Of a DNA stretch of 47,246 nt, positions 27,001 to 47,246 are shown in pieces. Position 1 is the first letter of the stretch; each line of letters begins with the position of its first letter. Position numbers: made by a program. The DNA is taken from assembly GCA_964612565.1 (NCBI GenBank), contig CAZTDP010000001.1, positions 76,336-123,581 on the forward strand. The letters run 5' to 3'. This DNA is from an uncultured Candidatus Saccharibacteria bacterium. Its GTDB lineage: Bacteria; Patescibacteriota; WWE3; UBA101185; UBA10185.

Positions 27001-30000
27001 AAAAGATCAAAGCGGCAACAACGAAGATAAGTCCGATTTCCTGCATTATTAGCAAAAATACAGCGATAACTGCAGCAATAATTATAAAGGTTCTGGAAAA
27101 ACGCTTATTAATTTCTTTGATTTCGACTTTTACCAGCGAGTCCCAAGTTAAGTAAATTTCTTTTGGGCCTAATTTTGCGGGATCAAAGTCCTCTGCCTCT
27201 TTTTGAGTTTCAACAGGCATTTTGGTGCCAAAACCCAGCATTGTAAGTAGTGATGGCATTTTCATAAGTTAATGATAGTTTTTTTGGGGATATTTTGCAA
27301 TCGGTTTACCTGGCGGAAGGTACAGGATTCGAACCTGTGGACGGTAATTAGCCGTCACGGCTTAGCAAGCCGCTGCATTACCACTCTGCCAACCTTCCAC
27401 ACCAACGCCTCTGAGTCTAACAGCGAAAGTATTATATCAGAATTTTTCGCGTTTACTCAGCGCAAAACACTTAACCTCCAACGCTCCGGCCTCGTAGAGG
27501 GTTCTTGTGGACTCTAAAAAGGTTGAACCGGTTGTGCAAATGTCGTCGATTAGTAAAATTTTACGGTTTAACACCGCGGGAGGATCTTTTACTAAAAAAG
27601 TGTTTTTAACATTTTCACGCCGTTCTTCTCTATTTAAAGTAAACTGTGGCGCTGTATGAACCACCTTTAAAAGTGCGTTTTTATTTAACTCAAGATGGAA
27701 AACGCGCGAAAACTCCTCTGCAATCATGTTTGCTTGATTAAAACCCCTGTAGTTAATTTTTTGTTTACTCGAAGGTATGGGCAAACACAAAAAATCTGCA
27801 AAGTCGTGGCCAAATTCCTTACAGAGCTGGGCCGCTTCCCTGCTTAACCTTTTGAGGCTTAAAAATTGTTTTGCACCGTATTTGGAATATTTTATGCAGC
27901 TTCTAATGTTGTCTTTATATGAATAGACGCAAATAAGCTGAGTCGGAGGGACCCTTTCTTTTGTACAGCCTGCGTGTGTTAAACCGAACTCGGAGGGTGT
28001 ATCGCAAACTATGCAGTATTGCTGTTTTAAAACCGTGCAGTCACTAAGGCACTTATCACAAAAAATGTCGCCAAGTGTTCCACAAAATATGCATTTTTCC
28101 GGAAAAAGGTAGCTTAATAAGTTTTCCATATGTTATCCACAAAGGTGTTTATGTTGCTGCTGCAACATTACTTAGACTCTGCACCTATAGTATAGGGTGA
28201 TTAAGATCCTGTAGTAATTATATTCATGGGTGCGTTTTAAACAAGGCAGAACACTCTAGTAAAAATAGAGATAACGTGGACAGCAGGATCGCATGCTGGT
28301 AGAATTTATGGTTTGTGAGAGTAACGATTAAAAGTTTGGAGAGACGCATGCTAAAAAGCGGGGCCGAAAGGCTCTGTTTTTTTGCAACACTACAGAGCGC
28401 TATGATGTAAAATTATATTATGATCTTATCCAAGAAAACCATTGAAAGTCTGATCACTGAAAATGCGCTGGTTATACAACCTTCCTACGAAATTAAAACC
28501 TCTTCTGTAAAAGCTTTTTTATCAGGAATGTTCGGAAAAAACAAAGAAGATTTTAAGCAGTCAGATATTTACACCCTTCAGCCAAAAGAATTTGTGCTTG
28601 CAAAGGCAAAGGAAGTAATTACTCTTCCAGACAACATTTCGGCTTTTTATGATGGGTACGTCGGAGTCGCAACATTGGGGCTTTTTACTCATGGAAGCTC
28701 GATGTATATTGATCCGGGTGAGACTAGCCAAATAACACTTGAATTGTTTAACGCCTCAGACACCCCAATAGTTCTAAAGAAGGACATGAGGGTGGGTCAG
28801 TATATATTTTTTAAAGTAGAGTAAAAGAAAACGAAGGTACTATTTTTGGTGGAGATGGAGGGAATCGAACCCTCGTGTTGAGAACCATTCATGAAGTTTC
28901 TACAAGCTTATCCAAAATTATCTTAAGTAAAGTAAGGTCTTTGGAAAACCTAATCTCTACAGCAAACCATAAGCTTCGAACTCAAAGTTCGCGGCGGCAT
29001 TGATCGGTTACCCCAATGCTGGCCTCGTCTCGGTTTTATATGACCCAAAAAGCCTTTCCGAGCAAACGCTTAAGGATCTTGCAGCAAATTTTATTAAGCT
29101 GCAACGGCGGCCATTGCTGGCACGCCTACGAATGCGTCATTATCGGCATTTATGTTTTTGCTAAATTTAAGGCTTTAGCATACCTGCTTGCAACTGCACA
29201 AATATTGAACTCAGTCAAAGCCTTGTGCATCCCCATGTTTTTAACGTACAGCCTGTATTTTACAGCAAAAACCAAAATTTTAAAAATTGCTAAAGGATTG
29301 TTAATAGATGCGAGCGGACTTTGATTCAATCTCTAAATCTTTTAAAATCTGCCTGTCTTTGGCTACTACTTTCTTTTCAAATTCCTTTCGTCCTCGGGCA
29401 ACAGCAAACTCAAGCTTTATTAAACCGTTTTTGGCAACCAAGGCTAATGGGACAGCTGTCTTACCCTTTTCGGAAATTGCCCGTGCTACTTCTCCGATCT
29501 CATTGGAGTTTAGCAGCAACTGTCTCGGTCTTTTTGAATCCAGTTCGTTAAAGGTTTTGGACTGTCTCGAGTATCTTCCGATATACAAATTAACAACACA
29601 CAAAGCACCTTCAATAAATTCTATATAAGAACCCTCAAAACTAACTTTTCCTTCTTTTATTGCCTTAACCTCAAAGCCCTTAAGCTTGATACCGGCACTA
29701 TACTCTTCGAGAACTGAAAAGTTATGAAGTGCTTTTTTATTTTTTCCTAAAACCATATTTTTACTTAAAACCAAACCAGACATAATGCTATTGTAGCAGG
29801 TAATGTTATAATTTTTATTGAAGATGCAAACAAACTCAATTATTAAAAAAATCTCAATAATTGCGCTGTGCACAGCGTTTTCAATGGTGAACAAAATTTC
29901 GTTTGCTGATGATGAATTTGAACCCGGAACAACATGCAGATCCCCAGATGATCCGAGACTTTCTGTTATATGCGGAACCGTAAAAAGTGCAGTACCTATT

Positions 30001-45000: not shown

Positions 45001-47246
45001 TTTTGGAGCAAGAAAAGCATTACAAAAATTAGCTCCGGCAAAACGCACCGTATCTAAAATTTTTTCATCGGTAAACATTCCTACGATAAAAGCACCGTCG
45101 GCTAAACTGCAGTTAAATGCAAAAAATAAATTTATGTATGTGCTACCGGTTTTAGGCGCTTTGTTCATTGGCGCAATTGTGTGGCAGTTAACTTCGAAAA
45201 CCGAAAACAAAAAGACAAACTCGATATCTCAGCCCGTGCAAGAGTCAACCACTTCCGAGCAACCTGCGCAACCACAGGTAATTGTTGCTGAAACAACCAA
45301 AAACGACGCGCAGTTTAAAGTTCAACGCGTATCTCCCGAGGTTTTTTACGATGTTAAGATTGCAGATTCCAATGCTGAACCTACGGAAATAGTACTGGCG
45401 TCTACATACATTGTTTCAAACGACCCAAAAACAGGAAAAATATTTAAATCAGCCGCCAATTCTGCCAAATTTACACCCGAAATAACCACATACCCGGGTA
45501 TAAAATCAATGGTAAATCAGGGTGGCAAACTTACGTTTCTTTCAAACGGAAAGGTGATTACATACGACCTGGCAAAAAGTGTCGAAACCGAGAACTTTGA
45601 CCTTGCAGATACTGACCTAATAAATACCTACTCCGATTACGTATACGGAATTAGCGGCGACAAACTAACACGTTATGCAAAATCAGACGATCTTTTAGAA
45701 CCTACGCTGTGGGGAGAAAATGAAGACTTTACAGATGCAAGATCTTTTACGATTGCCTACAGCATCTATTTAATTTCGGACAACGGAAACATTGGTAAAT
45801 ACACAAGTGGTAATAAAAATACCTTCGAAATCAAAGGTCTCGATCAGCCGCTTACCGGCGCGTCCCAAATAATGGCCGATATCGATTTTGAAAATGTTTA
45901 TATTATGGATCCTGCAAATCAAAGAATTGTTTTAATAGATAGCGAAGGAAAATTGGTAAAACAATATAAACCCCAGCCTAGCGAAAAATGGGAAGATATG
46001 AAGAGTTTTGCAGTATCTTCTGATGAAGATACCTTGTACTTTTTGGCCGGAAGTAAAATTTATCAGATCAATCTAGACAAGTAATCTCTCAGTTCGAGCC
46101 CATAGTTATGATGTTTTCGGGTATTGACCTTGTTAGAGAGAATAAGTACAATACCAAGTGCTTAGCGGAATTCCTTTGAAAAACGGGTTTTCGTTAAACC
46201 AAGCAAATCGTGGGATGATAACCAAAGAAAAGTATATTTTAGACAACCTACGAAAAACCTTTTGCTATAGCTGTGGGGCGAGTATGGAAGGGGCCGAAAT
46301 AGTCCCTATAAGCGAAGCAGGATTAGCATTAGTGGCTCACGCCGTCTGCCCAAAATGTAAAGCTGAAAGTATGGTAACTATTACACCTACAGGCAACGGA
46401 ATAGTGCCGGTTCAATCCGACCTTAAAGGTACGGAATTTAAAAAATTTATGGGAGTTAAGTCGGTTAGCTACGATGAGGTTCTCGAGCTTCATCTTGCAC
46501 TAAAGAAGGATCATATATGGAACTTATTGCAGAAAAAAGAGAAAAACTTGGCAAAGCCACAAAAAGCCTAAAAAAAGAAGGTTTAATACCTGCAGTTATT
46601 TTTGGAAAAGGAATCGAGTCCACTTCTATTACCTTGCCTCAAGTTGCTGTAGATAAAGCGTACAGCCTTGGCGGAGAAACAACCTTAATTGATATAAAAA
46701 TAGGCAATGATACCGAAAAAGTGCTTTTTAAAGATATTCAGCTCGACCCAATAACAGGGAGAACCATTCACGCAGGATTTTACAAACCAAACTTAAAAGA
46801 AAAAACTGAGGCCGAAGTACCTGTTGAAACTGTCGGCGAAGAACTTAACCCGTTTATCAAAAGTGCGGAAGCAATGGTTTTGGTCTTGCAAAACGAGGTT
46901 GCCGTCGAGGCTCTCCCTATGGATTTACCTCACTCATTCGAAATTGATGTTTCAAACATGCAACTCGGAGAAGCTTTTACAGCCGCTCAGTTACAATTTG
47001 ATAGAAACAAAGTCGAATTAGTAGATCTTGAAGACACCGACGTCATTTTGAGATTAGACAAGATCGAAGAGCAGGTCGAAGAGGCTGAAGCCGTCGATGA
47101 AGCAACCGCGCTAGAAAAGCTTGAAGCCACAGCCGAAAAAGTCGCTGAAGAAGAACCCGAAGAAAACAGCAAAGACAAAAAATAAAGATTCCTTGATCTA
47201 AAACCCAGTGTTTCCTTGCGGAAAGTAGTAAGTTTCCTTGCGGAAA

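Follow-up and report, generated by a model that had tools for sequence, protein, structure and literature searches.

A pilin, channel and wall-remodelling gene island of a WWE3-like bacterium as the probable detached half of a chromosomal Patescibacteria-type type IV secretion system

What does a block of genes for pilins, a putative channel and wall-remodelling proteins do when no secretion ATPase is encoded beside it? This question is raised by a 47,246-nucleotide stretch of the genome of an uncultured Candidatus Saccharibacteria bacterium (contig CAZTDP010000001.1, positions 76,336 to 123,581; hereafter the window), in which positions 29824–46084 hold an island of 12 open reading frames (ORFs), named A to L in order of position (Table 1). 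The original prediction, made from the sequence alone, offered two answers: a fragment of a dispersed system, or a minimal pilin-plus-channel apparatus distinct from canonical type IV secretion systems (T4SS). Our analysis points to the first. In our judgement the island is probably the pilin, channel and wall-remodelling half of a chromosomal Patescibacteria-type T4SS, a lineage nested in the monoderm class MPF-FATA (MPF, mating-pair formation), in a WWE3-like member of the candidate phyla radiation (CPR). Proteins encoded in the window found their best matches in candidate division WWE3 and other Patescibacteria.

The absence of a motor from the window was borne out by motif and Pfam scans. 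No Walker A motif ([AG]xxxxGK[ST]) was present in any of the 12 island ORFs, the Pfam families of VirB4, VirD4 and VirB11 had no match in any substantial ORF of the window, and relaxase families had no match in any window ORF, the window being the extent of that search. GTDB representative genomes were scanned with an alignment of protein B, and the 80 loci returned were then searched by tblastn; the best match to B was 46% identical, the window's own genome not being among those representatives. In close WWE3 genomes (B ~45% identical) the entire 12-gene order was kept together with the neighbouring SmpB gene, and no VirB4 gene lay within 10 kb. Because this order is kept in genomes whose B proteins are only ~45% identical, the conservation of the block is far beyond chance. 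In a more distant relative (locus L008, B 30% identical), the block was followed by genes for a 543-aa PrgI-domain protein, a 236-aa TraC-like protein and a 692-aa VirB4-type ATPase (domains AAA_10, P-loop_TraG and DUF87), and then by dnaN and dnaA. The order L-K-J-I, pilins, C and B, followed by PrgI, TraC-like and VirB4, was found in L008, in a locus from a WWE3-named genome (L040) and in L028, L031, L032 and L035. Pilin genes preceded B in 58 of the 62 loci that offered 6 kb or more of upstream sequence. Among the 52 loci with at least 8 kb of downstream sequence, PrgI/TrsD/VirB4 genes followed B on the same strand at a distance of 0.06–8.8 kb in 20, an A-type gene stood beside B instead in 13, and neither was found within 10 kb in the other 19. 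The window itself differs from the first 20 in that its B is not beside VirB3/VirB4. Synteny across relatives, which the original prediction had proposed as a check, thus held both for the pilins upstream of B and for the complete order in close WWE3 genomes.

A search with the VirB4 protein of L008 showed that the VirB4 proteins of CPR bacteria are highly conserved (~70% identical). Among them, P0123 (745 aa, 71% identity to the L008 protein, Walker A AKSGSGKS) was encoded at locus L010 of sample SRR8925805, in the order PrgI (573 aa), TraC-like (232 aa), VirB4, dnaN, khpB, yidC and rnpA, and the same sample also contains the island. The longest contig listed was 196,938 bp alike for P0123, for window protein B (P0001) and for window protein C (P0197), and the GC content of the L010 contig was 0.391 compared with 0.396 for the window. 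Downstream of the window only aminoacyl-tRNA synthetases were found (L003), and an exact-protein look-up of the first window gene, made for its upstream neighbours, gave no match. Taken together, the sequence comparisons indicate that a PrgI-TrsD-VirB4 motor module is very probably present in the same genome, at the origin-proximal position typical of Patescibacteria. The idea of a fragment of a dispersed system is therefore upheld by the VirB4 module beside dnaN in the same sample, by the equal 196,938-bp value and by the contiguity of the two halves in relatives; the same VirB4 evidence contradicts a minimal apparatus distinct from canonical T4SS.

Two observations concern the motor module itself. 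The PrgI/VirB3-like proteins of L008 and L010 were 543–573 aa long (L010 positions 7576–9297), compared with 117 aa in a pCF10-like plasmid. In both loci the PrgI membrane part leads through a long linker of low complexity to a C-terminal beta-sandwich that resembles CarboxypepD_reg. Among WWE3 and related CPR lineages, VirB4 proteins were ~66–81% identical to one another, whereas the B proteins of the same lineages were ~30–45% identical to window B; judged by these identities, the motor is under much tighter constraint than the envelope parts.

These arrangements were compared with the published systems. Quinonero-Coronel et al. (2025) surveyed 3,035 Patescibacteria genomes and described a monophyletic VirB4 clade nested in MPF-FATA, with TrsD and PrgI beside virB4, virB4 near dnaA/dnaN and almost no relaxases; VirB2-like pilins occurred in 1,948 assemblies and were near virB4 in only 1,135 of them (PMC12102498). 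A 2025 review already highlights these systems (PMC12857230). The system considered here shares with that clade a monoderm-like VirB4, with TrsD and PrgI/VirB3 beside dnaN near the origin (P0123 in L010, a putative clade member by sequence similarity), together with tandem divergent PF18895 pilins, a putative VirB6-type polytopic protein and candidate wall hydrolases, and it is likewise chromosomal, vertically inherited and without a relaxase (here, none in the window). It differs in being split, with pilin, VirB6-like and hydrolase genes beside SmpB and far from the VirB4 module; in a B family that VirB6, PrgH and TrbL profiles did not detect; and in its lineage-specific partners, namely C with its variable peptidase domain, the giant protein A and the SpoIID-bPH-DUF5657-L genes. 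SpoIID, DUF5657 and WWE3 are not mentioned in the text supplementary tables of that survey (PMC12102498). Since the island fits the published description point for point, it is best regarded as a member of the known system. The lack of VirB8/9/10-like hits, already noted in the original prediction, is no sign of novelty, because the MPF-FATA-derived system has no outer-membrane core complex and VirB8 is rarely detectable in Patescibacteria (PMC12102498).

Pfam T4SS_pilin (PF18895) matched all four proteins of the pilin array E–H (H at 27.4 bits, F at 25.9, G at 22.9 and E at 16.9), with only H above the cut-off of 26.6 bits. H scored 16.7 bits against TrbC (PF04956; cut-off 27.9), and NCBIfam NF045849, the Mbov_0395 pilin-like conjugal transfer family, matched E–H below its cut-off (30 bits for F, 16.9 bits for E). 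Hydropathy and alignment gave all four a pilin topology, with an N-terminal leader followed by two hydrophobic helices and a short polar loop between them, and a common core consisting of a first transmembrane (TM) helix, G(D/N)P, AQxxLT and a second TM helix, despite the low identity of F, G and H to E, the first paralogue in the alignment (20–22%). A profile of the four paralogues matched a Mbov_0395-family pilin of Pontibacillus in hhalign (97.4%, E 1e-11) and gave no signal against R388 TrwL/VirB2. Four tandem VirB2/TrbC-like pilin paralogues had been proposed, and they are recovered here as PF18895 matches, with the TrbC similarity remaining below cut-off. In Patescibacteria, VirB2 arrays comprise 2–11 genes with a mean identity of ~25%, especially in Microgenomatia and Saccharimonadia (PMC12102498). 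G was the commonest paralogue across related loci (54 of 84). H carries a Cys-rich extension of ~140 aa between its signal peptide and the pilin hairpin, with 18 Cys in the whole protein; its orthologues in L004, L006 and L007 are also extended, by a Cys-rich extracellular region of 140–260 aa. Such an extension is atypical of VirB2-type pilins, and on this feature H could be a minor or tip pilin.

Protein B has a signal peptide, a helical ectodomain of ~170 aa and ~6–7 TM or hydrophobic helices in residues 190–430. An AlphaFold2 model built with 46 homologues (pLDDT 86.4, pTM 0.84) formed a bundle of long TM helices, and in a Foldseek search against the PDB, chains of R388 TrwI/VirB6 took ranks 1–4 and 6 (probability 0.96–1.0). 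These matches were weak, with E values of 0.07–0.24, TM-scores of 0.26–0.32 (query-normalised) and 0.38–0.49 (target-normalised) and a root-mean-square deviation (rmsd) of ~10–12 Å; the best of them, 7o3v_G, had an E value of 0.07, a probability of 1.0 and a target-normalised TM-score of 0.47–0.49. In hhalign, B reached 52% probability (E 1.4e-4) against a 779-aa polytopic protein at the equivalent position of a T4SS-like locus of Pontibacillus, compared with 0.3% against PrgH and 0.2% against TrwI. Homologues of B were confined to CPR genomes (76 matches, none with a named function). Because of the weak but specific structural match and the gene position, B most likely acts as a VirB6-type platform or channel protein and is a putative member of that family. 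Its description as polytopic stands, and the label VirB6/TrbL-like finds no support in hidden Markov models (HMMs) and depends on the TrwI match and on position. VirB6 is scarce in Microgenomatia, and few VirB8 homologues are known phylum-wide, which the authors of the survey attribute to strong sequence divergence (PMC12102498); in WWE3 and Microgenomates, where published profile searches seldom find VirB6, the B family is a candidate for this "missing" protein.

On the far side of the pilin array lies a group of four genes, I–L. The SpoIID domain of I scored 70.8 bits in Pfam and 102.7 bits against the NCBIfam model TIGR02669 (SpoIID_LytB), in agreement with the coiled-coil SpoIID protein first proposed. 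Among the 62 loci reaching 6 kb or more beyond B on the upstream side, I adjoined the pilin array in 29, Microgenomates-type loci included, and it is a candidate for the natural glycan-cleaving partner of the system, as a putative SpoIID-type lytic transglycosylase. J was syntenic with I in 24 loci; it has two TM helices, and its bPH_2 match (21.2 bits) fell just below the 22-bit cut-off, leaving the proposed bPH domain borderline. K, predicted as a two-TM peptide, proved to be a DUF5657 protein (PF18901, 63 bits) kept in WWE3-type loci. L was syntenic in WWE3-type loci as well as in L008 and L040, and comprises a cytoplasmic N-terminal half, a TM helix at residues 281–299 and a repeat-like ectodomain. 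It is bitopic as described, but the suggested likeness to PP2C was not recovered: no PP2C, SpoIIE or PP2C_2 match was found in Pfam or NCBIfam and none in PDB sequences, and L had no match to any Pfam or NCBIfam family at E ≤ 0.1 or to PDB sequences at E ≤ 10.

C, the larger of the two giant proteins, may supply a second wall-directed activity. Its domain order is a conserved N-terminal region of ~270 aa, a long helical middle, hydrophobic TM segments at residues 841–931, a beta-rich region and a C-terminal AHExxH domain with HELGH at residue 1184. The HExxH domain remained under every Pfam cut-off (M78 at 17.4 bits, M48 at 14.8 bits), yet the AHExxH motif was conserved in the WWE3 subset of orthologues; the length, membrane segments and motif given in the original prediction therefore hold, with the domain outside the curated families. 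Orthologues of C keep the N-terminal domain while the C-terminal domain varies, being AHExxH, CHAP, Peptidase_M23 or C39-like. CHAP was detected with scores of 29.5 and 30.7 bits in locus-derived orthologues, and was also present in 3 of 18 homologues of one set and 9 of 40 of another; Peptidase_M23 was present in 3 of 18, and Peptidase_C39_2 in 2 of 18 and 4 of 40. The M23 domains of the three database homologues are precomputed annotations; M23 was also suspected from HxHxE tails in locus-derived orthologues, and Pfam did not confirm it for the sequences submitted. Domains of the CHAP and M23 types are characteristic of peptidoglycan hydrolases, T4SS hydrolases such as PrgK/TraG among them. 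The variable CHAP, M23 and C39-like heads thus suggest that C is an anchored wall hydrolase of the system, functionally analogous to VirB1/PrgK, and the zincin head of C itself may by extension be muralytic. The family is small (90 clusters among 1.84 billion representative proteins), and matches nearly always fell at the N-terminus of proteins of 1000–1500 aa. At that N-terminus (window positions 35079–35900; homologues P0198–P0294), the opening decapeptide MANNPxYPGY and a second copy of NPxYPGY were invariant or nearly so in a family that is otherwise 20–40% identical; such conservation right at the start of the protein points to a peptide for recognition or targeting. An AlphaFold2 model of the first 300 aa (19 homologues) gave no confident fold (pLDDT 52.8).

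Protein A was confirmed as a Cys-rich secreted protein by its 41 Cys and by an N-terminal hydrophobic, signal-like segment. Many of its Cys positions are near-invariant, and its C-terminal ~300 aa are conserved, with SRCNFxD, PW and GPYDW motifs; a PDB profile search with this C-terminal domain returned nothing meaningful. In close WWE3 genomes A adjoins B, at the position taken by PrgI-TrsD-VirB4 in other lineages. A may serve as an adhesin or tip protein, or may itself be a substrate. A lytic-transglycosylase-like (SLT-like) motif (GAQGPYDW) was suspected at its C-terminus and was dropped for want of HMM support. D, proposed as a small anchored protein, indeed has a single N-terminal TM helix and resembles PrgL/VirB8-like proteins in size and topology. 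Its sequence conservation was detectable in close WWE3 genomes only; its profile found nothing in the PDB and reached 10% probability against PrgL in hhalign.

On this basis we propose how the parts may work together. The four divergent VirB2-like pilins would enter the membrane via Sec, and B, as a very divergent VirB6-like polytopic protein, would form the membrane platform or channel. I, through SpoIID-type glycan cleavage, and the peptidase domain of C would open the cell's own peptidoglycan. PrgI (VirB3), TrsD and VirB4, presumably encoded elsewhere in the genome beside dnaN, would extract and polymerise the pilins and drive transport, and the secreted protein A and the Cys-rich extension of pilin H would be candidates for contact with the host surface. 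A pilus or host-interaction function is suggested by analogy with Southlakia epibionticum ML1, in which Wang et al. (2023) described an unusual Gram-positive-like T4SS (locus SEML1_0006-0019) with an essential series of pilins (PMC10633639), the T4SS genes and pilin array being essential for epibiotic growth. The earlier idea of a host-attachment or uptake structure is reasonable for an episymbiont, but it had already been proposed, with genetic support, in Saccharibacteria (PMC10633639).

A more ambitious version of this reading is that WWE3/Microgenomates-type CPR bacteria run a distinct sub-type of the Patescibacteria T4SS with an undescribed accessory set, comprising the C family with its near-invariant N-terminal peptide and interchangeable heads, SpoIID-bPH(-DUF5657-L), a pilin with a Cys-rich ectodomain and the secreted giant A, in which the peptidase heads and A act on the host envelope and not on the cell's own wall. 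If so, the island would be the host-breaching toolkit of these episymbionts; we regard this as speculative and rather unlikely.

Several points weigh against assigning the island to a split T4SS. Co-residence of the VirB4 module was deduced from the equal longest-contig value and the shared samples rather than read directly, and the search for a VirD4-type coupling protein covered the window only. Three of the four pilins score under the Pfam gathering threshold, and the cut-off for TrbC/VirB2 (PF04956) was not reached. B has no sequence-level similarity to VirB6/TrbL, PrgH or TrwI in Pfam, NCBIfam, PDB sequences or hhalign, and TrwI resembles it only weakly in structure (E 0.07, rmsd ~10 Å). 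No curated family accommodates the zincin domain of C, and for A, D and L no relatives of known function were detected.

Some of these points would suit a general envelope-biogenesis or wall-remodelling cluster that derives historically from a T4SS and no longer builds a pilus or channel. I, C, J, K and L have no specific T4SS assignment, three pilins lie under the Pfam cut-offs, B lacks a VirB6 HMM match, and the block is uncoupled from VirB4 in this lineage. We nevertheless consider this explanation improbable, since B is tightly linked to the pilins (58 of 62 loci) and VirB4 is strongly conserved, its ~70% identity across these lineages implying strong purifying selection on the system. Moreover, the block stands repeatedly beside VirB4 in relatives, four divergent pilin paralogues have been retained, and the homologous array is essential in Southlakia (PMC10633639).

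A self-contained, motor-less surface apparatus, in which pilins and channel would work without a VirB4-type ATPase, fares worse. It would account for an island without Walker A motifs in a 47-kb window without VirB4 or VirD4 families, and for the closest WWE3 genomes, in which 10 kb or more likewise separates the block from any VirB4. However, a VirB4 module is present in the same sample, very probably on the same contig, and the same block is fused to PrgI-TrsD-VirB4 in many relatives, including the WWE3-named genome. Separation of the two is also common: VirB4 was found in 2,417 of 3,035 Patescibacteria assemblies, and in ~40% of the assemblies with pilin genes these genes are not near virB4 (PMC12102498). 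This explanation is very unlikely.

Equally hard to credit is a remnant or cargo of a chromosomally integrated conjugative element (an integrative and conjugative element, ICE, or a plasmid), with pilins and channel left over from DNA transfer: the pilins are related to the Mbov_0395 family found on ICEs and a small Rep and serine-recombinase element lies 7 kb upstream in the window, but profile searches found no relaxase, coupling protein or integrase in the island, a repeat search found no flanking direct or att-like repeats, island GC (0.415) is near that of the window, relaxases occur in just 103 of 3,035 genomes (PMC12102498), and vertical inheritance is indicated because SmpB remains the neighbour of the block even in WWE3 species with just ~45% protein identity.

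The split T4SS thus preferred may also be set against better-known systems. In the Prg/Pcf system of pCF10 (MPF-FATA), PrgH is VirB6-like, PrgI VirB3-like, PrgJ VirB4, PrgK the hydrolase and PrgL VirB8-like. Relatives of the island share with it the order polytopic protein, PrgI and VirB4, a large multi-domain wall hydrolase nearby and the absence of an outer-membrane core complex. In contrast, pCF10 has no VirB2-like pilins, uses LPXTG adhesins and has a relaxase and VirD4; B shows no profile similarity to PrgH and D none to PrgL, and PrgK lacks the long N-terminal domain of C, a domain without a predicted signal peptide. The pilin profile match described above (hhalign 97.4%) links the array to the Mbov_0395-family proteins of Mollicutes ICEs and of Pontibacillus. 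The likeness to Rickettsia, where a functional T4SS is also encoded in scattered chromosomal islands and not in one operon, is limited to this scattered organisation and does not extend to the ancestry of the parts, the Rickettsia system being a diderm MPF-T with VirB7-11 (PMC12102498; PMC2653234).

Among sequences of the plasmid collection from outside the CPR, the nearest VirB4 (40% identity) was encoded on the megaplasmid of Pontibacillus sp. ALD_SL1 (NZ_CP062975, 347319–367058; locus L095), beside flagellar genes and with no relaxase in view. This locus has two pilin-like genes, one of them annotated as Mbov_0395 family, the 779-aa polytopic protein weakly related to B, a TrsD-like protein (5e-28), the VirB4 that is 40% identical to CPR VirB4 and a 1050-aa M23 hydrolase. 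It differs in being contiguous, in lying on a Firmicute replicon and in having no SpoIID, bPH, DUF5657, A-type or C-type partners. The locus may represent a relative, outside the CPR, of the Patescibacteria T4SS.

Overall, most of the original observations hold, and the analysis corrects an attractive but wrong lead: in place of a motor-less apparatus, the island is probably a split locus of a known system that is genetically essential in Saccharibacteria. Its new content is modest, namely a candidate VirB6 in the B family, the variable heads of the C family and SpoIID-bPH(-DUF5657-L) as conserved partners. For annotators of CPR genomes it offers testable annotation hypotheses and no new biological principle, among them that SpoIID and bPH genes travel with the pilin array.

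The ORF coordinates given for the island in the original prediction were borne out (Table 1). The 12 ORFs are bounded by SmpB (29301 to ~29780, minus strand) on one side and by a small Zn-ribbon protein and L25 (from 46158) on the other, and A, B, C, D and L belong to no curated family. Deduced from gene layout, the arrangement suggests five transcription units: A (+), B (−), C-D (+), H-G-F-E (−) and I-J-K-L (+). Within units, E and F overlap by 4 bp and J and K by 14 bp, and K and L are separated by 2 bp. A promoter and terminator scan was uninformative, finding fewer sites than in shuffled sequence.

Table 1. Genes of the island, with positions in the window and predicted features.
Gene	Position	Strand	Length and features
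A	29824..33573	+	1249 aa, secreted, Cys-rich (41 Cys); no Pfam, NCBIfam or PDB sequence match
B	33684..35015	-	443 aa (public gene calls), polytopic; candidate VirB6-like channel/platform
C	35079..38948	+	1289 aa; C-terminal AHExxH zincin-like domain; candidate T4SS wall hydrolase
D	38955..39548	+	197 aa, bitopic; N-terminal TM helix and ectodomain
E	39593..40003	-	136 aa, pilin paralogue 4; signal peptide and two-TM hairpin
F	40000..40320	-	106 aa, pilin paralogue 3
G	40396..40725	-	109 aa, pilin paralogue 2
H	40765..41505	-	246 aa, pilin paralogue 1; signal peptide, Cys-rich extension, pilin hairpin
I	41552..43435	+	627 aa, membrane-anchored coiled-coil SpoIID/LytB-type; lytic-transglycosylase candidate
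J	43451..44059	+	~185-202 aa, two TM, bPH-like domain
K	44046..44291	+	81 aa, two TM, DUF5657
L	44294..46084	+	596 aa, bitopic; no assigned family

Housekeeping genes of the window comprise rpoD, dnaG, ksgA, a VanY-type carboxypeptidase, tRNAs, tmRNA with SmpB, and L25. Outside the island, a low-GC stretch at 19118–22618 (0.32–0.33 compared with ~0.40) carries genes for a Rep protein (REP_ORF2-G2P, 63.6 bits), for an unknown protein of 267 aa and for a large serine recombinase; the recombinase gene runs at its 3' end into tRNA-Ala(CGC) (22543–22618). The stretch looks like a small integrated replicative element with this tRNA as its attachment site. Two dCTP-deaminase-like (DCD) genes were present, at 9169–9894 and 28420–28824, the second being shorter (134 aa) and matching the C-terminal part of the profile only. 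At 1783–3334, the gene for a camelysin/TasA-like Peptidase_M73 protein (55.8 bits) precedes those for an S26/S24-type signal peptidase and a small unknown protein, an arrangement that recalls the TasA-SipW fibre cassette of Firmicutes and may represent a second surface-fibre system in this CPR genome.

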